Part shown: positions 42,681 through 62,229 of the stretch, in pieces | How the letters are laid out: the number at the start of each line of letters is the position of its first letter | How positions within the stretch are numbered: the first letter of the stretch is position 1 | IMG/VR virus record: IMGVR_UViG_3300010352_002815 | Location: 1-64,000 of that record | Origin: a virus | Lineage: Duplodnaviria; Caudoviricetes | Strand: one strand, 5' to 3' | Length of the DNA: 64,000 bases | The notes under the pieces: generated by a model | The model's database searches: none | What the model was told of the DNA's origin: nothing | What the model saw: only the letters and a program-made list of their open reading frames with translations | Translations under genes and position numbers: made by a program

Positions 42681-42723
42681 ATTATAATCAAATAATAGAA
42701 ACGATTTAATATTTTACGACTAA
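42681..42723 (-). promoter_or_regulatory. conserved late-promoter element, copy 1
   Basis: ATTATAATCAAATAATAGAAACGATTTAATATTTTACGACTAA; upstream of the sheath operon. Confidence 0.75.
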
Positions 42724-42782
42724 TGTTATAAGAGCAAAAAGTACTTATAATAAATCAAATAAAAGTACTTTAGGTGATTTAA

Positions 42783-42929
42783 ATGTCTAATATTCATTTA
42801 GACGATTTATCAAATAACGAGTTAAAATCATTAGGACATACAGAAAAAGAAATTCAGAAAATTAGAAAAGAAGCTATGTTATTAAGAAACTTCCAGATTG
42901 ATAGATATATGGATGAGAGTGAATATTAA
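42783..42929 (+). CDS. 48-aa protein (not in ORF track)
   Basis: AGGTGA SD; TAATG coupling to the next gene. Confidence 0.45.
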   Translation: MSNIHLDDLSNNELKSLGHTEKEIQKIRKEAMLLRNFQIDRYMDESEY

Positions 42930-43150
42930 TGTCTATATTAAAGTATCTACCAAAGGACCCAATTGAAGATCTTATATTTGGTCTATCGTGTGTTGCCTGC
43001 GCCTCCGGAATGTTCGTAATGAAAGAAATGTCTACATTTATATTATGGGATATATTGTACGGATTATTTGGAACGTTGATCGTATTTTATGCAACGTATT
43101 TTATATATCACATGACACAGTGGCATAAAGACACTTTCGGAAGTGAGTAA
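42929..43150 (+). CDS. small membrane protein
   Basis: Two hydrophobic segments. Confidence 0.55.
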   Translation: MSILKYLPKDPIEDLIFGLSCVACASGMFVMKEMSTFILWDILYGLFGTLIVFYATYFIYHMTQWHKDTFGSE

Positions 43151-43168
43151 CCAAAACTTTTATATTCT
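43149..43168 (+). promoter_or_regulatory. BRE/TATA-type viral promoter
   Basis: AACCAAAACTTTTATATTCT; leaderless ATG at 43188. Confidence 0.65.
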
Positions 43169-43187
43169 CATATAACTACTAAGTACT

Positions 43188-43454
43188 ATGAAAGAATCGT
43201 TTGAGAAATTAGGATTGGTTGCCTTGCAACTAATCAGAGAAGAATTCCAAGAAGATCCGAAAGATGACCAAATGCTATTCGTATTATATAAAACAAAGCC
43301 TGATACGAGCTTAGTCGAGGTTGTAAATGTAAAGACTTCCGATAATACATTTAAAGAATTCTATAAATACAAGGACTTTAGATACAACGGAGTTCCAGTA
43401 ATCACATTACGGGTTTCGAACACAGAATTCGAATACTACCTACGATTACTTTAA
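43188..43454 (+). CDS. hypothetical protein
   Basis: Leaderless ORF. Confidence 0.55.
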   Translation: MKESFEKLGLVALQLIREEFQEDPKDDQMLFVLYKTKPDTSLVEVVNVKTSDNTFKEFYKYKDFRYNGVPVITLRVSNTEFEYYLRLL

Positions 43455-43468
43455 TTTTTTGAGGTTAA

Positions 43469-43657
43469 ATGACAAAAGGACGATTAAGTATTCGAGAAGA
43501 ACAAATCCTTGGAAATATAAAATCGGAAAAGTTCACTACTAAGGAAATCGGAGCCCGTTGTAGTGAATTAATCCGATTGGAAAATCGTGGACTCGTCAAA
43601 CGCAGCGGAATGACTGGTCCTAGAAACAGAACAACAATTTGGCAGAAGGTGATTTAA
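43469..43657 (+). CDS. small winged-helix-like protein
   Basis: FTTKEIG...LIRLENRGLVKR...TIW. Confidence 0.55.
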   Translation: MTKGRLSIREEQILGNIKSEKFTTKEIGARCSELIRLENRGLVKRSGMTGPRNRTTIWQKVI

Positions 43658-43810
43658 ATGTCTGAACTAACTGATAAAATGTTCCAAAATTTTTGGTCTG
43701 GTCAAAATAGAGAACAAAATACTAGTATTGAAAAGAAGACCACAATCACTCGACAAGAACTCTACGAAAAACTAAAAAGAATAGAAAATAGAAATAATAA
43801 AAATATTTAA
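43658..43810 (+). CDS. 50-aa protein (not in ORF track)
   Basis: AGGTGA SD. Confidence 0.4.
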   Translation: MSELTDKMFQNFWSGQNREQNTSIEKKTTITRQELYEKLKRIENRNNKNI

Positions 43811-43820
43811 TAATACTTTT

Positions 43821-44549
43821 TTATTCATTTATTAATATAATATCGCAACTAATTCCTTTCGTTGGACTAGCACCTTGCAAAATCAAGTCACAAACCAAGT
43901 TAGAATACCATCCTCTAACACATATGGACATTTCGTACCACGGAGGATGTACATCTGTCAACGTATCCATCCAACTAATTGGTTCGTCTGCTGGGAAGCC
44001 AAAATCGTATTGGATAGCATGGATGTTTGGTGTCTCATCTAGTACTGAGAAGCAATATTCTATTTTGAAATCGTAGACCGCAGGATAAATCCAATGTTGG
44101 TCGGATGCCTTGGCTTGAAATGGTGGTAAATAATTGACGTGTCCGGAACCAGGCACTACCTTCATGAAGTCTGTTGGCCAATATAATCCGAGCCTCAATA
44201 ACTCAATTTCAGTTTGTAAATCATAAAGCATTTGGTCAAGAATTTCTGGGGTGTCTTGGTCTGTTCCAGCTAGTAGGCTTTCAGCTAAAAGCGTTACACT
44301 AACAGATGCTTGTTGATGCTGGCCTATCCATTCACGAGCGTCGCCATTATCACCTAAATAGTCTTTGTAAATCGGACCATGAGTGGTTGGTCGCATTCTA
44401 ACGCCCTCAGAAATAATATTAAGTCTCATCGATGGAAATGTAAAGTCATCATTTTCTAATCGATCTTTCCGAAGTTTTTTAACAACAAGATCTGCAAGAT
44501 CGGTTGGAATTGCCTCAAGTAATCTTGCCCTTTGTGTTATCGAAAGCAT
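43821..44549 (-). CDS. putative tail terminator/completion protein
   Basis: TFPSMRLNII...SVSVTLLA...YDFKIEY fold pattern; last structural gene before the sheath operon. Confidence 0.45.
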   Translation of the reverse strand: MLSITQRARLLEAIPTDLADLVVKKLRKDRLENDDFTFPSMRLNIISEGVRMRPTTHGPIYKDYLGDNGDAREWIGQHQQASVSVTLLAESLLAGTDQDTPEILDQMLYDLQTEIELLRLGLYWPTDFMKVVPGSGHVNYLPPFQAKASDQHWIYPAVYDFKIEYCFSVLDETPNIHAIQYDFGFPADEPISWMDTLTDVHPPWYEMSICVRGWYSNLVCDLILQGASPTKGISCDIILINE

Positions 44550-46222
44550 TACGGCACCACCCTTTGTGCTCGGCTATCATAAGGCTTATACGGTAAATCC
44601 AAGTACTCGATATCAAGTAACTGCGGAGTATAACGTTCTATTGATACAGTAATTTCTTCCAAGTGGTCATCAATTAATCGAATGTCAGCACTGTACGTTT
44701 TTTCAGGTGTATCAAATAAACAGACATCATAGTAAGATAATTTTGTTAATGTCTTCTTATTAAGGATATCAGGTGTTATCGAAACAGGAACCCTTTCAGC
44801 GATTGCAACATAACTATCCATTGATTCCGTAAAGGATTTTTGAAGCATTTGACTGACTAAATGGGTTTTAGTAACGGTCTTTTTCAAAAGAACATCATCT
44901 AGCAATGATTTTAAAATAGTTTTTTTATTTAAAACATCGTTATCATATGTCTTGTATTTAGTGACTAAAGTACTATATAACATAGCTAATGGATTAGTTT
45001 TTCTAAATGATATTAATAAGTCTTGATCCCAAGAAAGACCTCGAACCGTTTTATTTAAGTCTATTATCCATTTACCAGAATTGTGGCACGGAACACCAGA
45101 CCAAACATACTTAGCAATATATTCTTCATCAAATACTTGCTGCCCTACTGGAGAATAAATTTCATCCAAGGGATCTCCTTCGTAGACTGTAACTGTAGAC
45201 GTGTTAACATTTATCCAATTAAATCCGTTAATAGATGTTTTAAATATTGGAGTTCCGTCAGAATTAAAGTCACTTATAGTAGCAAGAAAATCAGTAGTTG
45301 ATGTACCTACTTTTAAAACACTATAAGTATTTATTTTACCAATTTCTTCACCGTGATAGTTTAAGTCAAATAAAGTATTCCAAGTATTTAAATAACCACC
45401 ATCATTATTAACAATATAACGCACTTTACCAGTATTTTGTATAAGTACTCTAGCAACTACGGTAAAATCATCGGGTTGTAAACCAGTATAGTCTACGATA
45501 GATAATTGTAAAATACGTATATTGTTTCTTGGTAATGTCCACACAATACCAAATGCAGCAAATGTAGGATCACCTGCCCAGCCCCACGGCATGGTCCAAG
45601 TACTGCCTAAATTATCTGATACTAATAAATAAGGTCCGCAACTTGCTACGACTCTAGAACCGTAACCACAAAGAGCTGGACTCGAATATCCGGTAAATGT
45701 TGTACGTTCAGAACCTCCGTGAAAACCTACCCAGGATATATTATGACAGTCTAAAACTTTTGACCAGGTTTCTGCCAAGTCATACGATCGCCAGATATAA
45801 TTACCGTCATGGGCAAATAAAACATCATCATCAATGTTAATTACGGTCTTGCAACCTGGTGCGAAACTTGATATTTCACTCCACGTATAGCCGGAATCTT
45901 GCCAAGATTCGATCCAACCAGCTGAAGTGCTACCTATTACCCAACCAAAATCAATTAACGTTAGGGTATAAATAATGTTAGCAGTATTATAAACTTGGAC
46001 CCAGGACTTTCCCATATTTTTGGTACGGTAAATCGAATACGTACCATTAGACATTTTACAAATACATACATGATACTGGCCATAAACGTGAACCGGTTGC
46101 TGTATTTCATCTATTGCTCCGGGAAATGGTTCAGACTTCCACCAATCCTGGAAATTAGTAGTGTCAAAAGTCCCTAATAGAAAGTTTTTACCTTCAACTA
46201 CTGATAAAACAACTGGTTGCAT
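44549..46222 (-). CDS. BNR/Asp-box beta-propeller virion protein with C-terminal 14-aa repeats
   Basis: Asp boxes TKNMGKSW, SWQDSGYTW, SYDLAETW, SDNLGSTW, SINGFNW. Confidence 0.75.
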   Translation of the reverse strand: MQPVVLSVVEGKNFLLGTFDTTNFQDWWKSEPFPGAIDEIQQPVHVYGQYHVCICKMSNGTYSIYRTKNMGKSWVQVYNTANIIYTLTLIDFGWVIGSTSAGWIESWQDSGYTWSEISSFAPGCKTVINIDDDVLFAHDGNYIWRSYDLAETWSKVLDCHNISWVGFHGGSERTTFTGYSSPALCGYGSRVVASCGPYLLVSDNLGSTWTMPWGWAGDPTFAAFGIVWTLPRNNIRILQLSIVDYTGLQPDDFTVVARVLIQNTGKVRYIVNNDGGYLNTWNTLFDLNYHGEEIGKINTYSVLKVGTSTTDFLATISDFNSDGTPIFKTSINGFNWINVNTSTVTVYEGDPLDEIYSPVGQQVFDEEYIAKYVWSGVPCHNSGKWIIDLNKTVRGLSWDQDLLISFRKTNPLAMLYSTLVTKYKTYDNDVLNKKTILKSLLDDVLLKKTVTKTHLVSQMLQKSFTESMDSYVAIAERVPVSITPDILNKKTLTKLSYYDVCLFDTPEKTYSADIRLIDDHLEEITVSIERYTPQLLDIEYLDLPYKPYDSRAQRVVP

Positions 46223-46224
46223 AT

Positions 46225-47529
46225 TCAGGCTCCCACTAAGGTCATTCGCATTGCTGCACGTTTTGGAAACGTTCTTTTATTTAAAATGTCTATATCTAAC
46301 GACTTAGCAAATAACATGCTCAGGATGTCAAATTCAACAGAAGCTAACTTTTGAAACACTAAATTGGATTCAGTTCTATAAAATCGTCGTTTGGTTATTT
46401 TTGATATTTGGTCCATTGTCCAAGTTTCGGTTAAGTCATTTTTGCTAAAGTAACCATCAACCATATATTGACTTAATATATTTAATTTTGACATAATAAT
46501 ATCGGATGGTAGTGTCTTTAATATGTGGCCAAATAGTCCGATTAACATAGTATAACTCTTTGCAAAAGCATTTCGTAAGTTGGCACTTACTAAATAATCT
46601 TTATTGAAATATTTTTCTGTTAAAATATCCATATCATAGCCAATGGTGTATTTAAAAATATTAATTAGATCGAATTCGTATGTTGCATCATTATTTCTGC
46701 GTCGCAATCCGTAATACATATTAAATGGTAGCCATATCGGACCATTCATTATAATGTCAGTAGTATAATCGACAAGGGGTAACATTAAATCGTATGAAAC
46801 TCCAGCAGCTAACATTTGGGGAATTAAAATATCTAGTGTAGTCTTTTTGGCAATTGCTATTCGTGTGTAATCATCAGTATTAAAAGATATTCTAACGCAC
46901 GACGGATATTGGGTATCTACGTCGGATGCATCTTCTTCACCAATAACATTATCAATGATCGATTCACAATTGGCTTTAGTGCCTGAACTATTTAGAATTT
47001 TTGTTCGAGTCTTTAGACGGTCACGATATTGAGTATCGTCTTCTGAAACCAAACGTGGCAGGTCGTATATCTGACCCCATGCATTATCTAAGTCGTCGTC
47101 TTGTGCATATTCTAATTTAAGGGCATTTGCCATCGTATCCATTTGACGCCAAACTGCATCTAAAATTTCAGCATATGACCATACTAGAGCACTAATAACG
47201 GTCGTTGACGGTATCGTGGATTCGTAGGACGGTCGTAACACTAAGTCAAAATCTGCAACAGTTAACGTCTTTAGAATGCCAGTATTGATTTGGAACGTTT
47301 TGGATAAGTCTGATCGACCAATTCCTATAAGGCCTTCATACGTTTTTGGAACTAATTTCTTTAAAAGAACATCATGATTTCTATTAAGGGTATATCGGAT
47401 TGCACCGCCTTCAAGTGGTTCTGATCCAGTAAAGATCACCCACATATCCATGTCGTAGGTCTTTGATAGTACCGAAAATGAGTCTCCAATTCCTGGAAGT
47501 TCTCCTATGGGGGTTTCTCCGATTAGCAT
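46225..47529 (-). CDS. baseplate wedge (gpI-like) domain plus 14-aa repeats
   Basis: AQDDDLDNAWGQIYDLPRLVSEDDTQYRDRLK...GTKANCESII...AAGV. Confidence 0.7.
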   Translation of the reverse strand: MLIGETPIGELPGIGDSFSVLSKTYDMDMWVIFTGSEPLEGGAIRYTLNRNHDVLLKKLVPKTYEGLIGIGRSDLSKTFQINTGILKTLTVADFDLVLRPSYESTIPSTTVISALVWSYAEILDAVWRQMDTMANALKLEYAQDDDLDNAWGQIYDLPRLVSEDDTQYRDRLKTRTKILNSSGTKANCESIIDNVIGEEDASDVDTQYPSCVRISFNTDDYTRIAIAKKTTLDILIPQMLAAGVSYDLMLPLVDYTTDIIMNGPIWLPFNMYYGLRRRNNDATYEFDLINIFKYTIGYDMDILTEKYFNKDYLVSANLRNAFAKSYTMLIGLFGHILKTLPSDIIMSKLNILSQYMVDGYFSKNDLTETWTMDQISKITKRRFYRTESNLVFQKLASVEFDILSMLFAKSLDIDILNKRTFPKRAAMRMTLVGA

Positions 47530-47555
47530 TATTCACGTCCTGTATTAAAAAATTT

Positions 47556-48161
47556 TTATAAAGATTCGACGTCTATTTTATCTTTTCTAATAATTATCTT
47601 GAATTTGCCTACGAATTCTATAACATAATCTGTATTTTCTATAATGTCTTGAATCCTTTCAAGATAAACGGTCCTATTTAAGCCATACGGAATTTCGCAG
47701 TATGGACAGTTGGTTTCACCGCGATTATTACGTTTGACGAGATTATTGTCTATGTTGCTTCGACCGCATCTTTTGCAAGTCCATTCATCTTTCTGGCCGC
47801 ACTTAGGACATTCTGCCCATTTCGAGCTATCAATGTGCTTCCATTGGGCTCCACACGTCTTACAATAAAAGTGATTAGTTAATTGGATTTCGTTGTCCCA
47901 ATAGGCTTTAACGTTATCGGACGGTAGGACATTAAAATTCCAAGTCGGTAATGGTACCGCACAACCTGGAATTCCTTTGGATTGCATGGCTGCGGCAACT
48001 TCTTCGCTAAAAGGTGCTATAACCAATTTATGTATCTTAATGTTTTCGGTATGTGTCCAAAATTGTTGTGTGCCATCAGACGTAAATTGCGGTATAAAGT
48101 GTTCGCATCCGTCCTCATCTTTATAGATCTTGATCCACTGATATTCAATGATCGCGGACAT
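47556..48161 (-). CDS. double Zn-ribbon protein
   Basis: CKTC, CPKC, CKRC, CPYC. Confidence 0.6.
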   Translation of the reverse strand: MSAIIEYQWIKIYKDEDGCEHFIPQFTSDGTQQFWTHTENIKIHKLVIAPFSEEVAAAMQSKGIPGCAVPLPTWNFNVLPSDNVKAYWDNEIQLTNHFYCKTCGAQWKHIDSSKWAECPKCGQKDEWTCKRCGRSNIDNNLVKRNNRGETNCPYCEIPYGLNRTVYLERIQDIIENTDYVIEFVGKFKIIIRKDKIDVESL

Positions 48162-48729
48162 TATCTACTGAACCTTCCCGAAATTCTTGTAGCCAATTAA
48201 GTGCTTTGCATATGTCTGCCATTGGATATTTCAAATCTTTGATGGCCTTACTAACTGCATAATCATAGAAGTACTGGTTTTCAGGTATCATCCTGGATAT
48301 CTTTTCTTCTGAAATTTGCCAAGGTTCGTTTGAATTGGTAAAATAGTAACGGACTGTTGAACTTAGGTCTAGTTCAGGTATAATAAATTCTTGACGACAG
48401 AATACACAATCTTTATAGATTCGAAGTATCTTCGGACAATCTACGGTATTAAAAGCCCTGACATATACGTCAAAGTGAATTTGATCTTTATAAAGTTCTT
48501 CTAATAAGTCTCGACGTATTTTGTCATTAATATATAGGGTTACTATTTCTAGGAGGCCGCAAAATTCGTCTTCGATTTGGTCTACTAAAAACTTTCGAAC
48601 TGGTAGTAAGTAGCCTACTTCGGCTTCTGGAACTGCCACGATATCTTTATTATTGTTAGTTAGAAATTCTGGCACTATCTGGATTTTAATATCAGACGGC
48701 GACAATGTTACTATTTTGTTTTGTGTCAT
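48145..48729 (-). CDS. diverged tail-tube paralog
   Basis: Colinear motif matches to 40268-40771 (see findings). Confidence 0.5.
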   Translation of the reverse strand: MTQNKIVTLSPSDIKIQIVPEFLTNNNKDIVAVPEAEVGYLLPVRKFLVDQIEDEFCGLLEIVTLYINDKIRRDLLEELYKDQIHFDVYVRAFNTVDCPKILRIYKDCVFCRQEFIIPELDLSSTVRYYFTNSNEPWQISEEKISRMIPENQYFYDYAVSKAIKDLKYPMADICKALNWLQEFREGSVDNVRDH

Positions 48730-49687
48730 ATTTTCTTTTATTCTCCTTGATTGTATTATATTCTTCTTTAGTATAATAAGATCTTCCGTTATATATTTCT
48801 AATATTATTCGGTGGATCATAGCTTCCCAATTTTCTCTATCAAAGTTGGTCTTGCTATGACATCTATGACATAATGCTGCAAATTGAACTGGCTTACCAT
48901 CACAACAAGCTTGCTTATTATATTCTACGTGATGTACGGATAACGCTTTTCCGTTTTCTGATTCTGATTTACCACATGTAACGCATTGAAAGTTAAAGTA
49001 TGCTCGGACACGTTCTTTTAAGTCGTGGTTAAACTTTGGACAATATGGCTCAAAAGAAATACCACCTTTCCAATTATAATTTTTATTACCTAATTTACAA
49101 ATACTTAACTTTTCTTTCACATCAGGATTTTCTTCGTAAAATTCTTTTAGTGATTTACTCTGTCGAGCAATTTGATCTTCGGAAAGTTTAACGCCAAATC
49201 TTGGATTTCCGGAGCCTGACATTCTTTCCGAAAGTTTTTGGCGTGTTTCAATTGTTGTAATATGACCAGAATTAGTTTCGGATAGTTTTTGACGGGTTTC
49301 TTTGGAATGATGTTTACCAAATAATGGATGTCGATCTCCGGAAATTGTTTCTGATTGAGACCTTATTGGTATTCCAAACTTATGCAGGAAATTTGATACC
49401 GTTTCTTGTTGGCATCCTAATTCTTTTCCTATTGTTGAAGCTGATTTAAATTGATTAATATATTGATCGTATAACCAATTATAATTATTTAATTTATTAA
49501 ATACGTCAGGTGATAAGATACGTTCAGCACCGCACTTTAAATGAATATTATGCTTTTTAAGCCAATGCTGAATTGTGGATGCTCCACACCCGATTTCTTG
49601 TGCAATTTGATATGTTGATTTATTATTGGTTACGTATTGTTCATATAGCCATTCTTTGTCTTGACATTTTGTATTCTTTTCTGTCAT
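48692..49687 (-). mobile_element. free-standing HNH homing endonuclease (2 HTH repeats + NUMOD3 + HNH)
   Basis: WLYEQY/WLYDQY repeats, GKHHSKETRQKLSE, NWKGG, CVTC...LSVHH...LCHRCHSKTN; own promoter at 49711-49730. Confidence 0.85.
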
Positions 49688-49710
49688 ACGAACTAATAGT
49701 AAAATTAACT

Positions 49711-49730
49711 AGTATATAAAGCTTTTGGTT
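49711..49730 (-). promoter_or_regulatory. BRE/TATA-type viral promoter
   Basis: Minus strand AACCAAAAGCTTTATATACT; leaderless ATG at 49687. Confidence 0.7.
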
Positions 49731-49839
49731 GAATATATTTCTTACTAAATCTTAATAAAATCAACTTTAAGTTAAATATACTAATTACAATTTTACTATT
49801 ATGCAGTATGTTATAATTTAAAACAAACGTTTAGTTAAT

Positions 49840-50424
49840 TTATATCTCATCATATCTGAACGTGAGAGTTTCTGCCGCCTTATCTCCTTGCGTTGCGTCA
49901 GTAGCTATCTTAACTTGGGTTACGACCAAATTACTGACATCCGCGGACGTATAAGCCGTGCTGTCAATAAGTAGTGTCGAACCACTTACATAAGTATCTG
50001 CATCCACCGGCACCGCATGATTACTGGTTCCGGACTTATAATAAGTATGACCATTCGTTACGTTGTCGATATCGTAACCGGTCGTGCCGGTAGTTCCTGC
50101 GGCTTGATCATAAGATGCAACTGGACAGCCATTATCGCCGGTAGACTTTACACCGACAAATAATCCGCCATTTGTACCTAAGGCCCAGTTTGTTCGAACT
50201 GATCCGGACGTATACCAACGAATATTACTGATCTGGGTAAAGTCTCCAGAAAAGGCAATATTATGGCTCTTCCAGAAGGAATAATTGAAGTCTGCTGTCG
50301 GTACGACGCAAGGATTACTGAGTCCTGGATTGTATGAATCCATTGTGCAGTATCGGCCTTGCGTAATTACTGTAGCGGTTGGACCGCTACCATTATACTC
50401 GTTCACATTTACTGTGGCAACCAT
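49840..50424 (-). CDS. virion structural protein (fibre/appendage subunit-like)
   Basis: Thr/Gly/Ser-rich beta protein ending ETLTFRYDEI; GAGG SD; late region. Confidence 0.55.
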   Translation of the reverse strand: MVATVNVNEYNGSGPTATVITQGRYCTMDSYNPGLSNPCVVPTADFNYSFWKSHNIAFSGDFTQISNIRWYTSGSVRTNWALGTNGGLFVGVKSTGDNGCPVASYDQAAGTTGTTGYDIDNVTNGHTYYKSGTSNHAVPVDADTYVSGSTLLIDSTAYTSADVSNLVVTQVKIATDATQGDKAAETLTFRYDEI

Positions 50425-50462
50425 TTCTGTAAACCTCTTAATATATTAATAATTTTATATAA

Positions 50463-53660: not shown

Positions 53661-54239
53661 TTAAAGAGTATTTACATCAAAAGTTGCAATAGCGCCCTTA
53701 AGTACGCACGTGAGGTCAGCACTTCCGGCATCCTCAACCATCAAACGAGCATACAATTGTTCGCCATCGTCAATGAAGTCCTGTTCACCGGTTGGAATGG
53801 TTACAGTAAATGTATGGGTTGCAGCAGTCAAACGTTTGGCCTTCGCATCGTATGATGTTCCATAGTCTGCTCCTGCATCGCCTGCCAATACTGATCCGAC
53901 AGGAGTACTGGCATCAGCAGGTGTAGTAACCTGGATAATATTAATTTCGATATCGTCGTTAGAAGTTGAAATTGAGCCGCCTAACGTTAAAACCATCGTA
54001 ACCGACTTTAGTTTCGCACCTTTGTCAGCGGTTGTTCTGAATGGCATTATAATAGGAATAGTATAATAGTCTTTTTGGGTTGCAGCAGTCCTAGTAACAA
54101 AATAAACGTTTGAACTTTCAGTGACTGTCCATGTACCCGCGGAGTATACCGCTGGAGCCAATTGAAGCTGTACCTGATAGTCAGTTTTGGCTTCAGAAGC
54201 AGTGATAACTCCACCATCGATTTCAAATGTACCTGTCAA
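53661..54239 (-). CDS. virion structural protein (jelly-roll-like)
   Basis: First gene after element copy 2; Thr/Ala-rich beta protein. Confidence 0.5.
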   Translation of the reverse strand: MTGTFEIDGGVITASEAKTDYQVQLQLAPAVYSAGTWTVTESSNVYFVTRTAATQKDYYTIPIIMPFRTTADKGAKLKSVTMVLTLGGSISTSNDDIEINIIQVTTPADASTPVGSVLAGDAGADYGTSYDAKAKRLTAATHTFTVTIPTGEQDFIDDGEQLYARLMVEDAGSADLTCVLKGAIATFDVNTL

Positions 54240-54256: not shown

Positions 54257-54299
54257 ATTATAATCAAATAATAGAAACTATTTAATATTTTACGACTAA
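54257..54299 (-). promoter_or_regulatory. conserved late-promoter element, copy 2
   Basis: ATTATAATCAAATAATAGAAACTATTTAATATTTTACGACTAA (1 mismatch to copy 1), abutting plus-strand AACCAAAAAATACTTATAGT. Confidence 0.75.
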
Positions 54300-54348
54300 C
54301 CAAAAAATACTTATAGTCACCTCTTAAAAATCAAATAAAAAAAATAGT

Positions 54349-54675
54349 TTACTGGGTATCCGGAGATACACCAGAATCCTTGTAGCCGTTAATGGCAATT
54401 TGGTCGCCATCGACTTGCATGCCGGCAGCCAACTCAGTCACGGATACCATGGCACCGGTGGCAGTTTGAACAGCTTGACAGGCAGCCTTTAAGTTCTTGA
54501 CTACGTGTTCGCCGTCTTCAATTGCCCAACCAGATGCTAGACCGCTGGACTGGCTTTCAATCATATAGGATTGTGTTCGTATAATCTGTTCATTGAACGC
54601 CTTAATAGTAGCATTCATCATGTCGACTAATACTTTAATGGTAGTATTGTTAACGTCTGCTAAAGTCTTTCCCAT
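54349..54675 (-). CDS. hypothetical protein
   Basis: Start moved to ATG 54675 behind GGAG. Confidence 0.55.
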   Translation of the reverse strand: MGKTLADVNNTTIKVLVDMMNATIKAFNEQIIRTQSYMIESQSSGLASGWAIEDGEHVVKNLKAACQAVQTATGAMVSVTELAAGMQVDGDQIAINGYKDSGVSPDTQ

Positions 54676-54706
54676 TTTATTTGTTCTCCATATATTTTTA
54701 TTTTGT

Positions 54707-55690
54707 TTAACCATATAATTTGAATATTCCTGTTTTATCGCCATTCCCTAAATCCCGGTCAATGCCATGATAATAACCATTCATGACCTGACCGGCCCGG
54801 TTGCTGGCGTATAGGTCGCATAATCCTAAGCTGTGCCCCAGTTCGTGCAGGGCAATTGACTGGAAGTCATATCCATTGCTCCCATCCATCGAGAAGGTAT
54901 ATTTGCTGTTGTAGGTGACATCCGTCTCCAGTATCTTATAGTATCCGTCCTCTTTTGCGCTGCTAAACCAGGTTCGAGCGAAGGCAATGCATGACGATGT
55001 GCTCGGCGCGAAGGCATGAACTCGCATATTATCCCTCGTGTCAGACTTCGCCGTTGCACTCAACGCCACCGTATTGCTGTCCGCAAACAGTTCTTTGTTC
55101 GTAGCCGAATCCCATATTTCGGCATCCCGCCGGATTGCCTCGGCTACATTCGCTGCATTTAGGCCTTCTGCCCGGAGCAGGGCATCATCCTTAACAACGA
55201 TTTGCATAGGGACGGCATCCTTGCTCAGCTTGTAGATTTTCAGAGCATAGGCGGAAGAAGACCCATCATTTGTAATGTATTCCGGACCTGCGAGTAATGC
55301 ACTAAATTTTCCTTTTTCGGTTATAGCGTCTACTGACATCATAGTATCAGTCGATACTTCATCCATGATTTCCATATCAGATGCTACAACTGAACCAGTT
55401 ATTCCGTTTTCTGAAGAAATTAATTCTCCATTAATATTATTATTTTCTGATTCTAATATAAATATTCCATTTTGGGTATTTTGAAGTATAGTATTATTTC
55501 CAGAACCGGAAAATTTTGTATTACCATTTATAGTACCTTCGGATAATTCTAAATTTTGAGAATACTCTAAAGAATTATCCAAAATTAAGTCATTAAATTG
55601 AGAATATCCTTCAGATGAAATACTAATAGAAATACAATTAATGGGTGATATTAAGAAAACCATCAATATATAATAATAAAATTTAATCAT
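54707..55690 (-). CDS. secreted matrixin (M10/metzincin) metalloprotease
   Basis: Signal-peptide-like N-terminus; ETDVTYN, ALHELGHSLGLCD, Met-turn QVMNG, LGNGDKTGIFKLYG. Confidence 0.85.
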   Translation of the reverse strand: MIKFYYYILMVFLISPINCISISISSEGYSQFNDLILDNSLEYSQNLELSEGTINGNTKFSGSGNNTILQNTQNGIFILESENNNINGELISSENGITGSVVASDMEIMDEVSTDTMMSVDAITEKGKFSALLAGPEYITNDGSSSAYALKIYKLSKDAVPMQIVVKDDALLRAEGLNAANVAEAIRRDAEIWDSATNKELFADSNTVALSATAKSDTRDNMRVHAFAPSTSSCIAFARTWFSSAKEDGYYKILETDVTYNSKYTFSMDGSNGYDFQSIALHELGHSLGLCDLYASNRAGQVMNGYYHGIDRDLGNGDKTGIFKLYG

Positions 55691-56043
55691 TATAAGTCAC
55701 TGCTTTTTAATGGATATAGTAAGAAGTGGCCAGATCCTGATATTTCGCCGGTCCCGGAAACCTTACCGTCATTATATAAAAATACTGCATCACCATCAAC
55801 GGTCATTGTACCGCTATTAACCATATCAGCATTTGGTCCAATATATCCCATAACGGTTTCGCCTGATTTGACAGTCCACGTTCGCCCTGATCCCAAGTTC
55901 ATGTAAGAAACGGTAACCATTTCGGCGCTGCGTCCCGACGTAAGTTGAACAATGTCTGACGGATCGTAACCCAAGTCCAAGTAACTCTGATATTCTGATA
56001 GGGTTAGTGATCCAGCTCTAAAAGCATCAATTAATCTGACCAT
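55690..56043 (-). CDS. hypothetical protein
   Basis: Start ATG 56043 behind GGAG, after element copy 3. Confidence 0.55.
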   Translation of the reverse strand: MVRLIDAFRAGSLTLSEYQSYLDLGYDPSDIVQLTSGRSAEMVTVSYMNLGSGRTWTVKSGETVMGYIGPNADMVNSGTMTVDGDAVFLYNDGKVSGTGEISGSGHFLLYPLKSSDL

Positions 56044-56062
56044 ATTGTAACTCCAAGAAATT

Positions 56063-56105
56063 ATTATAATCAAATAATACAAACGTTTTTATTTTTTACG
56101 ACTAA
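56063..56105 (-). promoter_or_regulatory. conserved late-promoter element, copy 3
   Basis: ATTATAATCAAATAATACAAACGTTTTTATTTTTTACGACTAA abutting plus-strand AACCAAAAAGTAGTTAAACT. Confidence 0.7.
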
Positions 56106-56155
56106 CCAAAAAGTAGTTAAACTAGAAAGTAATATAATTGAATGAGGTAATTAGA

Positions 56156-56878
56156 ATGGAACAAAATGAAATTAACGAATCAATAACAATGCAAAAGACG
56201 GAAAATCAAATAATTTTCTATGGTAGGGATATAGGCATAATAGCAGGATACCTCTATCAATGCAAAGGAAATACCATACTATCAGAACTTACAAAGTGTG
56301 GTATTATATCAAAACCAAAACATCGAAAAGTATTCATTGGCAATTTAAAAGTTGGTGATGTAGTATTACTAGAATCCGGAATATACGATTATGATCAAGT
56401 AATATTCGAAATAGCTGATGTTATCAACGTAAATCCACTAACGATACGCATTCGATCAGATAAAGATACAGATATTTATAATGCACTTGGTGTATGCAAT
56501 GGGTTTATGATAGAAGAAAAATCAGTTGACCAAATGACAATAGAGTATTTTAAGCATTTGATTTTAACTATATCAACAAATAACGAATATGCTAGTTGCA
56601 TTTCTGGAACTATTAACAACCGGAAAATACAAGAAACAAAAAATAAAAATGCTCATATTATAGCAGAAGTTTCTGACGAAACTATTGCAAATCTAATAGT
56701 CAAAACATTTAACAATCCTACGAACAGCCAAGCAAAATCTACTGCATTATATAATCCAGTTGTTCTAGCATATGAATCAGGTAATATAATAGCAACAAAC
56801 GGAATGTCAGAATTTGATCGAAATTCTATCCGAATGTACGTATTAGGATTTAAAAATGCATTGAACGTGGTAGATTAA
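56156..56878 (+). CDS. hypothetical protein
   Basis: GAGGT SD before ATG 56156. Confidence 0.55.
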   Translation: MEQNEINESITMQKTENQIIFYGRDIGIIAGYLYQCKGNTILSELTKCGIISKPKHRKVFIGNLKVGDVVLLESGIYDYDQVIFEIADVINVNPLTIRIRSDKDTDIYNALGVCNGFMIEEKSVDQMTIEYFKHLILTISTNNEYASCISGTINNRKIQETKNKNAHIIAEVSDETIANLIVKTFNNPTNSQAKSTALYNPVVLAYESGNIIATNGMSEFDRNSIRMYVLGFKNALNVVD

Positions 56879-56947
56879 GATAGCACACCAAATATGCAAG
56901 GAGAACTAATATGTCAATAAATATGGAAATTTTTTGGAGTGATTTAA

Positions 56948-57130
56948 ATGCATTGTAAATATTGTAATTATAGATGGACATATTTTCTGACTAAAATAGT
57001 TAAAAAGGTTATATGTCCAAATTGTAAGAAAAAAGTAGCTATAGAAAAGGGCAATTTAATTTTAATAAGTAATAAATTATTAAAAAATAACGAAGATCCT
57101 AGAACGTTTATGGAACGTACATATAAATAA
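56948..57130 (+). CDS. small Zn-ribbon protein
   Basis: CKYC...CPNC; GGAGTGA SD. Confidence 0.55.
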   Translation: MHCKYCNYRWTYFLTKIVKKVICPNCKKKVAIEKGNLILISNKLLKNNEDPRTFMERTYK

Positions 57131-57132
57131 TT

Positions 57133-57582
57133 TTATTCCTGGGTTACCAAAATAGGTGTTAAATAACTAACGTCCATGGAAATTGTTCCTATCCAACGAG
57201 CTTGTTCCGTTTCAACAAGATTACTAGTAATTTTATTAATATAAATTTTATATTCAGACGTAGTTCGTTTTCTATGCCACGAAAACAACTCACAAATATC
57301 TTCGACTACTTGTCTACAATGATTTTCATTGTGGCCATACGACGTCACTATCGTAATTTTTATCTGGACTTGCTTTTCATCCCAATCTCGGATCTGGCTA
57401 AAAAATGCACTGTCTCCATTATCAGAAACATATTCGATACCTAAACGGGTGTAATGTGGCTCTGTTAACGTAACAGGATCTCGTAATAGTCCAACATAAA
57501 ATTTATTATCTGTTAGTTCAACAATCTCAGTATTTCCATGAAGTTCATCTAAAATAAATTGCAAAATAGGATTTATGGTCAT
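57133..57582 (-). CDS. putative tail-terminator-like neck protein
   Basis: Size, position after head closure, VQIKITIVT pattern. Confidence 0.45.
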   Translation of the reverse strand: MTINPILQFILDELHGNTEIVELTDNKFYVGLLRDPVTLTEPHYTRLGIEYVSDNGDSAFFSQIRDWDEKQVQIKITIVTSYGHNENHCRQVVEDICELFSWHRKRTTSEYKIYINKITSNLVETEQARWIGTISMDVSYLTPILVTQE

Positions 57583-58203
57583 TTATGCATCTCCGTCCTG
57601 TTTTTTTACCACCCTAAAAGCATATTCTTGAGCAACATAACTAGGTGGCGTTGAAATATTTTCGAAGTCACTTATTGGAACAAATAATTGATCGTCATAA
57701 CCTACTACACTCATTGTCATAGATTTGTCTAATGGGGTTGATCGTTCGCAACGGACATAATGAACTATTTTAGATCCTAGTCCTAATGAGTCAGCTTGAA
57801 TTTGTGCAGACATTCCTCCGTGCTGGCCGAACTCTGCCTTATACGGTCCATAAGTTTGTTGCCACGTTATAGGCATTCCGACGGAATTGACAGCAGTCAC
57901 GACTAATGTAGCATCTGTTTCGTAATAGTCGGATCTTAAACTAGTTAGAATGTCAAAAAAATTAGTAGTATATTGAGTTCCAGCTTCTGAAAATGACAAT
58001 CGTTCTATTTTAGCAGTACCATTTAAACTACCAGCTATACGAATACGACATGCTTTATCAGCAGTCACTGCTAATTGAAAGTTCTCTGCCGTAGGATAAC
58101 CCACTATGGTCATTGTAGCAGCGGCATCACCATTAAAGATTTCATTAATTTGTTTGTAAATGTATATAGAATGTGTATAACGTAGTCTTTTTGGATAAGG
58201 CAT
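57583..58203 (-). CDS. putative head-closure protein
   Basis: RYTHSIYIYK...GMPITWQQTYGPYKAEF; follows the adaptor; TAATG coupling. Confidence 0.45.
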   Translation of the reverse strand: MPYPKRLRYTHSIYIYKQINEIFNGDAAATMTIVGYPTAENFQLAVTADKACRIRIAGSLNGTAKIERLSFSEAGTQYTTNFFDILTSLRSDYYETDATLVVTAVNSVGMPITWQQTYGPYKAEFGQHGGMSAQIQADSLGLGSKIVHYVRCERSTPLDKSMTMSVVGYDDQLFVPISDFENISTPPSYVAQEYAFRVVKKQDGDA

Positions 58204-59051
58204 TACGACCACTCTGCGTTTTCTCCGGCATCATAACCATTGTCGTCAACTTCGTTTTCGTCAAAACCACCTTCGAACTGATTATAAGACGGTATGAGAG
58301 TACGTTTCCATCTATTGGGATAATTAACAGCATCTTTGATTCTAACCATTTCAACGGCAGCACCACGACTACAAGACACTGCAGACAAGTTAGCCGAAGT
58401 TGCTATAGAATTAAATAATTTTTCAAATGCTTCCCTTGGTCCTGTTTTTTCACCCCTTGAAAATGACACACCAGGAGCCTGGCTTTGGCTTCTAAATGAC
58501 CAGTCCGGATTGCCCATTTCGAAGTAATCTGCGACTAAATGACACATCAATGCGCTATATTGAGCATCTGTTAAATATTCAGAAGATACTGACCTCATAG
58601 CAAGTAAATTATTTAATTCACTTTCCGCAAGATCCTTATAAACATTAAACGAATCATATAGAATATCAGCTTCTTCATTATCATCAATAGCTGCTTCAGA
58701 CGACGTTTGAACTGTCAAAAATCTATAATACACTCCAAACAATTGTATTAATTTATCAACGCCTGATTTCGTACTATTAGGATCCAGTACTTCAATAGTA
58801 GCAACTTCGCCTAAATGTTTTGAAGTTCCTATTTCAATATAAGCCCGTAAATAATAAACACCAATTTCGTCTAGGTCACTAGCTGTCGCAGTATATGTAA
58901 TTTCTTGAGTACTTTCGTATTGGGTTGCTACCCAAGTATCAGATGTACCAGACGGCCTAATAACCTGAATATTAATTAATGTAGCTCCAGATAATGAAAT
59001 ACTAGTATCCATACGTATTTCGACATCTGATTCGCCTAAAAATATTGTCAT
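58203..59051 (-). CDS. putative head-tail adaptor with N-terminal Ig/BppU-like domain
   Basis: SLSGATLINIQVIRPSG...DLDEIGVYYLRAYI; C-terminal ALMCHLVA...SQSQAPGVSFS. Confidence 0.55.
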   Translation of the reverse strand: MTIFLGESDVEIRMDTSISLSGATLINIQVIRPSGTSDTWVATQYESTQEITYTATASDLDEIGVYYLRAYIEIGTSKHLGEVATIEVLDPNSTKSGVDKLIQLFGVYYRFLTVQTSSEAAIDDNEEADILYDSFNVYKDLAESELNNLLAMRSVSSEYLTDAQYSALMCHLVADYFEMGNPDWSFRSQSQAPGVSFSRGEKTGPREAFEKLFNSIATSANLSAVSCSRGAAVEMVRIKDAVNYPNRWKRTLIPSYNQFEGGFDENEVDDNGYDAGENAEWS

Positions 59052-59059
59052 AATTCACC

Positions 59060-60022
59060 TTAATAAGATTTTATTTTTTCTAAAAGTTGTTTAGAATATG
59101 ATTTCAGAATAGTTATTTTTATATCACAATATGATTTTATAATATTAATATTTTTATATAAATAATTAAATATTGTTAATAAATTAGAATTACTGCTTAC
59201 ACAACTATATAAACTTATATTATTTTTTAATGTTGATAAAATACAACTATTACTATTTAATACATTTAACGGTAATTCAAATAAAACTGTCCATCTAGAC
59301 ACTAAATTGTTTTGTGTATTAATACTACCAATAATATTATTCAATCTACTTAATAACAGATTACTTGTAATTGAAGAAATCACATTTGAATATATATAAA
59401 AATTTTTTAATAAATACGTATTTATTATAGTATTATTTGAAATTACCGCCGTCAGATTACATAATAAATTTATTATATTATTTAGATAAATATTATTTGA
59501 TATAAGTCCACTTATTGAAATATTATTATTTAATATATTATTGACATTTATTGTATTACTAAGGATAACAGAACATATATTCATATATAAGTTACATATA
59601 TTAATTATTATAGTATTATTAATAATATTACTACGTAACTTAATATCACATAACATTATATTAATTAAATTATTTCTATTTTCAATTGTACTATATAATA
59701 ATTTAAAAACATTTAATGAATTCGCATAACTATTATTACTATTTATAATGCCATATAGCATTTTTGAAATATTTGATACTCCAAATATGTTTAATACGCT
59801 ATTTACGCAGGACCTAACATTTTGCAAAATATTTAAATTGCTTTCATATAAAGAATACACACAAACATTACCAATAATGTTTTTTAATACCAAAATTTCA
59901 TTATCAGATACGCTCAAACTATAAACAGTACCACTTAATTCCGCTATATCAGCATTAGATGCTAAGCCACACGAAACTGGCGCTATTTGCTGTTTTCTTC
60001 CTAAAGGTGTAGGAGAGGTCAT
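59060..60022 (-). CDS. extremely AT-rich Asn/Ile/Ser/Leu protein with ~20-aa repeats
   Basis: Intact 320-aa ORF; sampled line 59461-59520 is 7/60 GC. Confidence 0.6.
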   Translation of the reverse strand: MTSPTPLGRKQQIAPVSCGLASNADIAELSGTVYSLSVSDNEILVLKNIIGNVCVYSLYESNLNILQNVRSCVNSVLNIFGVSNISKMLYGIINSNNSYANSLNVFKLLYSTIENRNNLINIMLCDIKLRSNIINNTIIINICNLYMNICSVILSNTINVNNILNNNISISGLISNNIYLNNIINLLCNLTAVISNNTIINTYLLKNFYIYSNVISSITSNLLLSRLNNIIGSINTQNNLVSRWTVLFELPLNVLNSNSCILSTLKNNISLYSCVSSNSNLLTIFNYLYKNINIIKSYCDIKITILKSYSKQLLEKIKSY

Positions 60023-60033
60023 TTAGCCTTCCA

Positions 60034-60588
60034 TTACGTATGAATAGTTCTAGTGTATACGTCGGTCATCGAAGGCGAGCCACTAGAATCAGTTAAATCA
60101 AACCTAAATAGTTCCGTAGCATTATCTGATGCATATACTATTAGTTGATTAGACGTTACGGTCATCTTACCGCCTAACGATGATACTAAGTTACCTACTG
60201 TACCTGCTGTTAAGTGACCAGATACTGCGTGATTTAATAATGCTTCAGCGTTTTCTGATGCAGTTGGAAAACCATCTTGTAACCTAAAACGGAAAATTTC
60301 GGTGCCGACTACAGAAATTCCGTCTACTGTACCAGCAGAAATTACAGCAGAAAAATCATGTCCGTTAGCATAAAAAGTACCATCTTGGCTAGTATCAACT
60401 TTTACATTATGCAGACCAGTTTTACTATCAAAATCTACAGTTAAAGTTATCCCAGAATCGTCTTCCGTGGTGCTATCATCCTTGTAAATTTTAATGGATG
60501 GTGTACCCGCTAAAGTAATTGGTGTACCATCATCTTGATGTGTGTTAAAATTTCTATAAATAATAGATCCAGCTTCATATGAATCCAT
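60034..60588 (-). CDS. virion structural protein
   Basis: Beta-rich acidic protein in the late operon. Confidence 0.55.
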   Translation of the reverse strand: MDSYEAGSIIYRNFNTHQDDGTPITLAGTPSIKIYKDDSTTEDDSGITLTVDFDSKTGLHNVKVDTSQDGTFYANGHDFSAVISAGTVDGISVVGTEIFRFRLQDGFPTASENAEALLNHAVSGHLTAGTVGNLVSSLGGKMTVTSNQLIVYASDNATELFRFDLTDSSGSPSMTDVYTRTIHT

Positions 60589-60589
60589 G

Positions 60590-61108
60590 CTAAACCACCT
60601 TGCTAATTAACGGATTACAACTTATTAATCCTGATCCTATTAATGGTATATTCGATGTACTATATACAGCTATGCACAAAACTGTGTTAGTATCTTCGCC
60701 GGCCCATGTCTCTGGTATATTATCTGGAAAAGGATAATCATCTAATGAACCACCCGGTGCTTCTGTATTATAGACAATACTTCCAGATAAACTTTTCATC
60801 TGTATAGAACAATAATTTCCTTCGTGACATGGTATTTGAGCAATATAGTAAGTTTGGCCTTCTGTTATAGTTTGCCCTGTTCCAATACTTACTACATGCC
60901 AACCAGCAACATCTTCTACGTCAACTTCCGCTAATAAATCAGATGAATTATATATCGCAAATCTACTGCCACAAGTCCCTGCATCAGGAAAATTAAAACC
61001 AATTTTGGCTAATACGCCAGATCCAACTGCAACAAACGGACAAAAAACTGCGCCCCAATTAAAAACTAAGTTTGCACCAGCGTAATCTGGGTATCCAAAA
61101 AGTTGCAT
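60590..61108 (-). CDS. putative fibre tip / carbohydrate-binding-like protein
   Basis: RFAIYN..LLAE...GWHVV...ITEGQTYYIA pattern. Confidence 0.45.
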   Translation of the reverse strand: MQLFGYPDYAGANLVFNWGAVFCPFVAVGSGVLAKIGFNFPDAGTCGSRFAIYNSSDLLAEVDVEDVAGWHVVSIGTGQTITEGQTYYIAQIPCHEGNYCSIQMKSLSGSIVYNTEAPGGSLDDYPFPDNIPETWAGEDTNTVLCIAVYSTSNIPLIGSGLISCNPLISKVV

Positions 61109-61109
61109 G

Positions 61110-61571
61110 TTACTCCATGGTAATATAAAGATTCTTTACTGAACCATCGCCAGCAAACATTTCCACACGATAAATTTCAGTATTATTGTTTCTTAATGTA
61201 CCAGAATCGTCTCGAAGTGGTGCAGCACCTTTCCATTCGCCATCTATTGTCCAGTCCATACGACTATCAGAAAAATTTAATACTACGCAACAATCATACC
61301 ATTTATTTAATTGATACGTTGTTGGTTGTGGTAATGATTTAGGTAACGACCATCCACCAGGATAATATTGGAATTCCAAACTATTTGACATAGTAGGACC
61401 TACCAAGAAAGGTTGAATATTCGTATAATCATTATTTGTTAATATGTTTCCAATATATGCATAGTCGTTAATACCAGACATCATTAAATCGAAGTCATAC
61501 GTTATTTTTTCAATAGCTTGTACGTTACTAATAGTTAATAATAACAATAATAATAATATAATATTTTTCAT
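61110..61571 (-). CDS. secreted protein, ConA/laminin-G-like
   Basis: Signal peptide MKNIILLLLLLLTISNVQA; LNKWYDCCVVLNF...WTIDG. Confidence 0.55.
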   Translation of the reverse strand: MKNIILLLLLLLTISNVQAIEKITYDFDLMMSGINDYAYIGNILTNNDYTNIQPFLVGPTMSNSLEFQYYPGGWSLPKSLPQPTTYQLNKWYDCCVVLNFSDSRMDWTIDGEWKGAAPLRDDSGTLRNNNTEIYRVEMFAGDGSVKNLYITME

Positions 61572-61593
61572 GTTTACCTCATTATACTTTTAT

Positions 61594-62022
61594 TTATGTA
61601 GTTGGTGTTATACTGATATCTAATGCTCCAGCAGCAAAACTAGGTGTATCACCATCGGTAATAGTTTTTTCGACTGTCAACGTACCAAATGCAATAGTGT
61701 GCGTAGATCCCAATGTCGCACTATCACTTATAAAGAACGTATCTAATGTACCCCATGAACCAGAAGCCGTTGCAAATGTTATGACTGCTTTATTATCTAC
61801 TAATCCATTTGATGGTGTATTCCATAAATTGGTGTCGTTGGTTATTGATTTTCTAGCGTAATTGGAAACACCAATTGTTGGTTCTCCTGTTATCGTACCA
61901 TCTGCTGCAACTGACGTACATAATCCAAAATATAGCGTTGCAGGAGCTGATAATACAGTTCCACCAAATAATTCTCCAAGTATGGAATCCGACCATGTCG
62001 TACAAAATCCAGATGCTACCAT
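61594..62022 (-). CDS. conserved phage fibre/appendage subunit
   Basis: PATLYFGLCT...NYARKSIT...ITFATASGSWGT...KTITDGDTPSFAAGALDI, a widespread phage virion family. Confidence 0.7.
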   Translation of the reverse strand: MVASGFCTTWSDSILGELFGGTVLSAPATLYFGLCTSVAADGTITGEPTIGVSNYARKSITNDTNLWNTPSNGLVDNKAVITFATASGSWGTLDTFFISDSATLGSTHTIAFGTLTVEKTITDGDTPSFAAGALDISITPTT

Positions 62023-62140
62023 TATTTATCACGAATCCTGAAAAGTATTTTAAATAAAAGTTTTTCTATAAATGATTGTTTATGACCGTTTCTAATAATC
62101 ATATTAGCATGGCCACTTAACGGAACAATTCTAGTCACTT

Positions 62141-62179
62141 TAATCAAATAATAGAAAACTATTTTATTTTTACGACTAA
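62141..62179 (-). promoter_or_regulatory. conserved late-promoter element, copy 4
   Basis: TAATCAAATAATAGAAAACTATTTTATTTTTACGACTAA abutting plus-strand AACCAAAAAGTATATAAAGT. Confidence 0.7.
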
Positions 62180-62229
62180 CCAAAAAGTATATAAAGTCTA
62201 GTTATAATAAGTAGTACGAAGTGAATTAA

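Follow-up and report, generated by a model that had tools for sequence, protein, structure and literature searches.

The closest described system to the element reported here is the class I and class II intergenic repeat (IR) promoters of halovirus HF2 and other members of Haloferacalesvirus (Russ, Pfeiffer & Dyall-Smith 2021, PMC8707807). In these intergenic repeats, a transcription factor B recognition element (BRE) and a TATA box are joined by a conserved start-site block that is essential, as proven by reporter assays, primer extension and mutagenesis; they are active in uninfected cells, some are bidirectional, and one heads a 35-kb morphogenesis transcript. We have analyzed an element of this type, designated promoter A, in the first 64 kb of the 97,515-bp IMG/VR record IMGVR_UViG_3300010352_002815. 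This stretch of 64,000 nt is hereafter called the window. Like the HF2 repeats, A is a virus-specific, strictly intergenic repeat which precedes long transcription units including those of the morphogenesis genes, is kept in sequence and position among relatives (at least five related contigs) and combines a sequence at the BRE/TATA position with a conserved block at the predicted start site. Unlike the HF2 repeats, which have a good TATA box, A has a weak and variable TATA position and an invariant box at the BRE position, and is known from sequence alone. The pairing of A with a second promoter, B, and its link to variable islands of small genes are not described for HF2 in the available part of PMC8707807.

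A second point of comparison is with the promoter early stem-loops (PeSLs) of T4-type phages (Arbiol et al. 2010, PMC2839356; Comeau et al. 2014, PMC4122927). PeSLs consist of a bacterial early promoter and a terminator hairpin, flank gene cassettes on both sides, and are proposed to bring about gene gain and loss through homologous recombination between copies. A and B resemble PeSLs in being short conserved regulatory repeats at the edges of variable accessory regions amid conserved modules. They differ from them in that the A/B module is made of two divergent promoters, has no hairpin and lies on one side only of an island; at 54.3 kb alone does the boundary of an insertion fall on a copy. 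Altogether, the data favor the view, to which we assign a probability of roughly 0.6, that A is a virus-specific promoter placed at the head of each virion operon in a contractile-tailed virus which probably infects an archaeon. It would thus belong to a known kind, the virus-specific promoter repeats of archaeal tailed viruses, and what seems new is an example linked to accessory-gene turnover.

The core of A is TCGTAAAA-N14-17-TTATTTGATTA, with TCGTAAAA as box 1 and TTATTTGATTATA as box 2. A search of the window for the gapped form TCGTAAAA-N15-17-TTATTTGATTA returned four matches, all on the minus strand, against 0.00 in shuffled sequences. Read on that strand, each full element consists of TCGTAAAA, a 16-nt spacer and TTATTTGATTATA(AT). 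Within the window, the shorter string TACGACTAA is likewise matched exactly at four places, each on the plus strand (42715, 54291, 56097 and 62171; 0.69 expected). The element written literally with a single N, as in the original prediction made from this sequence, has no match in the window; the true gap is about 10 nt. Between 42 and 64 kb, no direct-repeat family is larger than that formed by the four copies (61 nt, 74-87% ungapped identity), which sit 18-36 nt upstream of minus-strand start codons, in agreement with the earlier claim of four bipartite elements preceding minus-strand operons.

Copy 1 spans positions 42683-42719, with TCGTAAAA at 42712-42719 and TTATTTGATTATA at 42683-42695. 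It precedes a 48-codon gene (42518-42664, minus strand) followed by the tail sheath operon, whose first large gene is the sheath gene itself (40809-42491, minus strand; phrog_279, 4e-22). Copy 2 (54259-54295, minus strand) heads gene 53661-54239 and the downstream baseplate/fiber genes, while copy 3 (56065-56101, minus strand) heads gene 55690-56043, which has its ATG at 56043 and a GGAG Shine-Dalgarno (SD) sequence. Copy 4 (62139-62175, minus strand) carries the box 2 variant TTATTTGATTAAA and heads a run of eight genes extending from 62102 down to 57133. As had been noted, the box 2 core (AATCAAATAA on the plus strand) recurs in minus-strand orientation, here lacking box 1, at 42753-42762 and 54329-54338, in each case 67 bp from the neighboring A copy (copies 1 and 2, respectively); the second of these overlaps a run of eight T residues described below.

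Loosening the core (CGTAWAA, 18-23 nt, TGATTW) raised the number of matches to nine in the 97.5-kb record (0.27 expected). Each of them lies on the minus strand, in an intergenic region just before a minus-strand start codon; the five beyond the window are at 73.7 (weak), 77.6, 81.73, 81.79 and 82.1 kb. A tenth copy was found on contig L005 (IMGVR_UViG_3300009692_000822), whose proteins share 97-100% identity with those encoded at the right end of the record, and which adds about 10 kb to it. In this extension (L005:1-10340), the order is portal-like gene, thymidylate synthase fragment, exoribonuclease-like gene and terminase large subunit; the A copy precedes the portal-like gene, with terminase further on. 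Thus, the motif scan of the full genome, called for by the original prediction, yielded copies before both the capsid operon (77.6 kb) and the packaging operon (portal-like, L005). At 77.6 kb, A precedes a gene in the scaffold position and the major capsid gene (phrog_264), and the copies near 81.7 kb precede an ADP-ribosyltransferase gene and a gene of 888 codons. In the same scan, the replication half (1-42 kb) was free of A copies. A appears as a compact, conserved two-box signal which separates the virion operons from all other genes in this lineage.

Related viral contigs (sheath proteins 80-89% identical) were retrieved with the motif itself and with the sheath protein. The relatives compared here are referred to as L006, L008, L010, L011, L016-L020, L022, L023 and G002, the last being more distant. 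Orthologous A copies lie before the sheath operon in L016/L017, L018/L019/L022, L020/L010, L023 and G002, and before the homologue of gene 55690-56043 in L006/L008/L011 and G002; copy 4 has its orthologue at G002:14207. This conservation at virion operons supports the promoter role that had been ascribed to the element; the fixed switch claimed along with it did not hold up, as detailed below. In an alignment of the nine A copies, only TCGTAAAA and TTATTTGATTA are invariant. The spacers of the copies in related contigs are unrelated in sequence to those of the window copies and are 14-17 nt long. In G002, all three A copies read CGTAAAAC...CCAATATGATTA. Judging from these comparisons, the minimal A core shared across the lineage is CGTAAAA plus TGATTA. 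The CTAA of TACGACTAA is found in the four window copies only, and not in the five other copies of the record or in any relative; TTTTACGA is the sole part of TACGACTAA kept in the other copies and in relatives. The proposal that an invariant TACGACTAA is the recognition site is therefore not supported. Exact A matches in L009 and L012, which are AT-rich jumbo contigs without B motifs and without shared proteins, were taken as chance or unrelated occurrences.

The copies of A within one genome resemble each other more than they resemble their orthologues. The spacer regions of the A copies in this genome are 0.76-0.95 identical to each other, and those of G002 0.77-0.91, against 0.38-0.50 when orthologous junctions of the two genomes are compared. 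Such a pattern suggests copying or gene conversion within a genome, and points to recent copying or homogenization as the origin of the likeness of the four window copies beyond the core. An attractive alternative is co-evolution with a genome-specific factor, because box 2 changed in concert in G002; the present data fit either account.

Promoter B, which the original prediction had described as an outward, plus-strand ACCAAAA-type promoter beside each element, is defined by CCAAAA-NN-TTTAWATA. It proved to be a real class: the strict form CCAAAA-NN-TWTWWATA has nine matches in the window against 0.05 expected, B is intergenic and co-oriented with the next gene, and it is also present in relatives. 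Looser forms occupy most intergenic gaps of the replication region and precede homing-endonuclease genes, ligase genes and the islands. Across four related genomes, first genes without an SD sequence (n = 13) have their ATG 21-27 nt past the octamer, and SD-led first genes mostly start 31-38 nt past it. A purine-rich box joined to a TTTAWATA box, with an SD-less ATG about 23 nt further on, is the BRE/TATA geometry of archaeal leaderless mRNAs; a bacterial -10 element lies about 7 nt from a leaderless start. B also fits archaeal core promoters whose first cistrons are leaderless and whose internal cistrons are SD-led, in having its purine-rich box 2 nt upstream of the 8-bp TTTAWATA. B is thus likely to be the general promoter of the virus, an ordinary archaeal BRE/TATA element.

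In three of the window copies B adjoins A; the GCAAAA variant at 42.7 kb sits 10 nt further on. This variant, copy 1 (42734-42749, plus strand; GCAAAA-AG-TACTTATA), heads island 1, whose first gene has the SD sequence AGGTGAT and an ATG at 42783, 33 nt past the box. Copy 2 (54300-54315, plus strand; CCAAAA-AA-TACTTATA) is an orphan with no plus-strand gene. Copies 3 (56106-56121, plus strand; CCAAAA-AG-TAGTTAAA) and 4 (62180-62195, plus strand; CCAAAA-AG-TATATAAA) head islands 2 and 3, with the ATG 34 nt past the box in both (56156 and 62230, respectively).

B occurs in further arrangements. In the tail module, a gene for an HNH homing endonuclease (48692-49687, minus strand) has its own B (49713-49728) and a leaderless ATG 25 nt past the octamer; the G002 homologue shows the same arrangement, with the ATG 23 nt past the octamer. 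Near-palindromic, bidirectional B pairs (GCAAAAGG/CCAAAAGG back-to-back) are found at 13438-13468 of the window and 67761-67795 of the record, where they drive divergent genes.

How A would be read can be considered from the position of the translation signals. SD sequences begin at least 6 nt after box 2, and the conserved TTG start of gene 53661-54239 lies 19 nt after it, which places the probable start site where box 2 ends or immediately beyond. For the same reason we ruled out box 2 as a TATA box at -26, since the conserved SD and TTG of 53661-54239 follow it by 6-19 nt. By the geometry of B, TCGTAAAA would stand at the BRE position and the first 8-9 positions of the spacer at the TATA position, and box 2 would span about -15 to -2, its end falling 1-5 nt short of the predicted start site. 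This placement is supported by the copy at 82.1 kb, in which a good octamer (TTATAATA) is followed 20 nt later by an ATG; located 1 nt after box 2, this ATG opens a leaderless-looking open reading frame (ORF) of 49 codons. The octamers at the TATA position are AT-rich in the four window copies (for example, ATTAAATA); many orthologues have clearly non-TATA octamers (TCGGTAAT, ACATCTCA, CCTCCTAT, ACCAAGTT) and keep both boxes. Compared with an archaeal core promoter, A has the same overall geometry, with TCGTAAAA replacing the CCAAAA BRE, a degenerate TATA and an added 13-nt proximal box. A thus looks like a weak-TATA promoter whose identity resides in a variant BRE box and the proximal box. 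For both A and B, we infer promoter function and start sites, and for A late timing, from position and comparison.

A weak TATA together with conserved extra boxes is typical of promoters that require assistance. Such help could come from a viral activator or from an alternative host TBP or TFB, and the weak TATA of A would make it dependent on a hypothetical viral or host factor recognizing box 2. Ptr2 of Methanocaldococcus and TFB-RF1 of Pyrococcus are examples in which a weak TATA/BRE is offset by a factor bound beside the core promoter. Activator sites of this type lie upstream of the BRE/TATA, whereas the best-conserved box of A lies between the TATA position and the putative start site. 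To our knowledge, there are almost no studies of temporal gene control in archaeal tailed viruses, and we know of no dedicated late-gene factor in them. The natural variants of A, with a weak or strong TATA position or a changed box 2, would be useful material for reporter or pull-down work given a host.

The region at 81.7-82.2 kb of the record deserves separate mention. Three tandem A copies (82132, 81788 and 81733) lie inside 400 bp and are opposed by two B-like boxes; the ADP-ribosyltransferase gene and a plus-strand helicase operon flank the region, which looks like a complex bidirectional control region. The frame of the ADP-ribosyltransferase (81501-81730 of the record) extends without a stop for about 200 nt 5' of the first ATG and reaches an ATA codon located just 3' of a strong AAGGTGAT, 15 nt after the A copy at 81733.

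The plus-strand islands have the ORF layout described in the original prediction. Island 1 (42783-43810) contains five small ORFs of 48-88 codons without family matches and has an internal B (43151-43166) followed by a leaderless ATG at 43188. Island 2 (56156-57130) contains an ORF of 240 codons and a Zn-ribbon-like ORF of 60 codons. Island 3 (62230-63339) contains an ATP-grasp gene (RimK/R2K-like; 248 codons, 62230-62976; phrog_2599, 8e-25) and two small ORFs, and is followed by T6/T7 runs on both strands at 63360-63435.

Comparison of the same junctions between relatives, which the original prediction had proposed as a check, showed that their content is not invariant, the outcome which would have counted against that prediction, but ranges from 0 to 5 genes at one junction. 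At the sheath promoter (slot 1), this virus has five small genes; there is one in L016/L017/L023, L018/L019/L022 and G002, matching no island protein of this virus, and none in L020/L010. At 56.1 kb (slot 3), this virus has two genes, G002 has genes for proteins of 109 and 117 residues which match no protein of this virus, and L006/L008/L011 have no genes, A standing alone. At 62.2 kb (slot 4), the ATP-grasp gene is kept in place in G002 (55% identity by tblastn) and its small neighbors differ; it probably works with the adjacent COOH-NH2 ligase genes rather than being a casual passenger. A search of IMG/VR for close relatives of two of the island genes returned none by the method used. Junctions without islands are also without B (L020/L010 and L006/L011), suggesting that B comes and goes with the island. 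G002 has back-to-back A/B pairs at all three junctions, with linkers of 8-10 nt and leaderless island genes at two of them. The linker measures 3-4 nt in the window copies, 7-9 nt in three more copies of this virus (81.8 kb, 82.1 kb and L005), 22 nt in L016 and about 230 nt in L018.

These data support the notion of "cassette slots" in a loose sense. The idea that the elements are landing sites for accessory cassettes stands insofar as content varies; it is weakened by the lack of any repeat at the distal ends of the islands in a search for repeats covering 42-64 kb, and by the conservation of the ATP-grasp gene. A simpler basis for the arrangement can be envisaged. Operon ends would be oligo-T runs, so that a boundary would read T-run, then B facing outward, then A facing onward; operon boundaries are where insertions would do least harm, and a divergent gene inserted there would have to put its promoter next to A.

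As stated in the original prediction, no gene follows the outward promoter near 54.3 kb: no plus-strand ORF lies after the B box at 54300-54315, which is separated by 33 nt from the convergent gene's stop codon (54349-54351). The site had accordingly been viewed as an empty slot. This view is not borne out, as the site corresponds to the distal end of an insertion lacking in relatives. In L006, L008, L011 and G002, the homologue of 53661-54239 comes directly after that of 55690-56043, with an SD sequence and the same TTG start, and no promoter is present between the two; this virus has 1.4 kb extra at this point. The insertion (54349-55690, minus strand) comprises two genes, encoding proteins of 131 (54349-54744) and 327 residues (54707-55690), of which the same four contigs contain no homologue. 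The larger protein is hydrophobic at its N-terminus (MIKFYYYILMVFL...) and carries a matrixin (Peptidase_M10) domain at its C-terminal end (PF00413, 2.3e-9); it may be a protease, secreted or membrane-bound, that attacks a proteinaceous cell envelope. No close relative of this protease gene was found in IMG/VR by the method used.

Just after the stop codon of gene 54349-54744 there is a run of eight T residues (54337-54344, minus strand), likely to be an archaeal-type terminator; the role of oligo-T in archaeal transcription termination is established. The T8 of the inserted cassette would cut off the downstream genes, and A copy 2 would restart the baseplate/fiber operon. The orphan B, if active, would give rise to an RNA antisense to the inserted genes, starting from the 3' end of 54349-54744. 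The simplest account of the 54.3-kb copy is thus that of a module copy closing a two-gene insertion. The region would provide a concrete case of accessory genes, including the matrixin-like protease cassette, being fitted into a virion operon without polarity.

The host is very probably an archaeon. Among 50,697 phage records, the major capsid protein has a single match, to the ANME-1 virus ANMV-1 (40% identity over 96%, 2e-50). The sheath protein likewise has a single match among phage records, to a Methanosarcinales virus with the same local gene order, and the nearest relatives of PolB are from haloarchaeal tailed viruses (24% identity). Sigma-70-like sites are not enriched (95 vs 89.7 ± 9.3), hairpin terminators are depleted (4 vs 10.5 ± 3.7 in shuffled sequences) and convergent junctions carry oligo-T runs. 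A pair of adjacent proteasome-like ORFs of 187 codons (14773-15336 and 15383-15946, minus strand; PF00227 at 1.2e-10 for one of them) and an ERCC4-domain nuclease gene (26315-27070, minus strand), all in the replication module, fit an archaeal host but do not decide the matter; sequence searches of PDB with the proteasome-like and ERCC4 proteins gave no match. SD use is strong (at least 61 of 140 ORFs), unlike in Bacteroidota. No match was obtained by megablast of 15 kb against phage records or by Rfam over 99.5 kb, and ARAGORN found no tRNA.

A number of observations weigh against the reading of A as a virus-specific virion promoter, its accompanying mechanism or the archaeal host. Two close relatives are binned, as stand-alone viral contigs, in Bacteroides and Porphyromonadaceae (Bacteroidales) metagenome-assembled genomes, and the terminase is closest to those of Firmicutes phages. 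Searches for TBP, TFB, the TFIIB Zn-ribbon and sigma regions 2 and 4 in the record and five related contigs found none, with about 14 kb of the genome possibly missing; the only match in the regulator search was a sub-threshold Zn-ribbon inside a structural gene. Pfam scans of 40 early-region proteins revealed no DNA-binding regulator. By analogy with the HF2 repeats, A may need no viral factor at all. The spacers of the two A copies in contig 3300027914_000844 are only 0.57 identical, and thus are not homogenized. In G002, a divergent small gene interrupts an operon and is not followed by an A copy, and ancestral presence of the 54.3-kb genes, followed by loss in three lineages, is a less parsimonious alternative to their insertion. 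Since the whole case is built on sequence comparison, its value is that of a testable lead.

Elsewhere, ANMV-1 (KP703175.1) has an annotated TBP of its own at 12057-12650, next to terminase.

The alternative that survives best, although we consider it improbable, is that A is a strong constitutive repeat read by the unaided basal machinery of the host, without a viral factor or a temporal switch, the likeness of the copies being due to gene conversion and the islands gathering at operon boundaries only because insertions are tolerated there. The HF2 repeats, with a TATA box and start-site block similar to the arrangement of A, drive a reporter in uninfected cells (PMC8707807), the TATA position of the window copies is occupied by octamers reasonably rich in A and T, and the regulator searches in the record and its relatives came back empty. 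Yet the orthologues with the non-TATA octamers TCGGTAAT, ACATCTCA and CCTCCTAT keep both boxes, which suggests that the boxes are recognized; A and B are cleanly split by gene function; and box 2 changed jointly, to CCAATATGATTA, in all three copies of G002.

Somewhat more doubtful is an elaborate form of the opposite idea, namely that A is read by a dedicated late factor co-evolving with box 2 (TTATTTGATTA here vs CCAATATGATTA in G002) and, in addition, that A/B is a portable module copied along with cassettes, an archaeal counterpart of the T4 PeSLs. On this model, the copied A would restart an interrupted virion operon past the terminator of the cassette.

Very unlikely is the scheme of the original prediction as a whole, in which a factor at the invariant TACGACTAA throws a mutually exclusive early/late switch, the elements are site-specific landing pads and the 54.3-kb site is a vacant slot. 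The BRE-like boxes of A and B are 4 nt apart in the window copies, so that initiation complexes could clash; the back-to-back pairs at the three G002 junctions and the varying island content also speak for it. However, the CTAA is kept neither in the other five copies of the record nor in the relatives, and linkers of 3 to about 230 nt mean that no fixed overlap is required. Moreover, junctions without islands lack B, indicating that B travels with the island; the 54.3-kb copy coincides with an insertion; and no integrase-like gene or flanking repeat was seen.

Least likely of all is that the virus is a bacteriophage, with A as a -35/-10 promoter (TCGTAAAA, 16 nt, TTATTT) of a phage or alternative sigma factor and B as a second phage class: while the box spacing of 16 ± 1 nt fits the geometry of the sigma-70 family and strong SD use, the Bacteroidales bins and the terminase affinity can be cited in its favor, the record has no Sigma70_r2/r4 match at E ≤ 1 (with about 30% of the genome outside the sequence searched), the rule placing the ATG 21-27 nt past B has no bacterial rationale, capsid and sheath match only archaeal viruses among phage records, strong SD use speaks against Bacteroidota in particular, and there is no excess of sigma-70-like sites and few hairpin terminators. 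Inspection of the copies also led us to reject a Bacteroidota -33/-7 (TTTG / TAnnTTTG) reading of either A or B: it fits on neither strand, would run antisense to the genes and is at odds with the high SD use.

Two additional sites with B-type sequences were noted. A 409-nt gap contains two minus-strand B promoters, at 29454-29469 and 29174-29189, the upstream one having no ORF after it; it may drive an RNA from 29208-29283, a segment not called by ARAGORN or Rfam. Lastly, positions 85229-85290 of the record, at the end of a plus-strand operon, contain a B-like box sharing the CTAACCAAAAA-CTACTTATA of the A/B module, followed by a 9-bp AT-rich hairpin, AAGGTGA and TTG; the ORF called at 85326-85610 of the record may have been assigned to the wrong strand.

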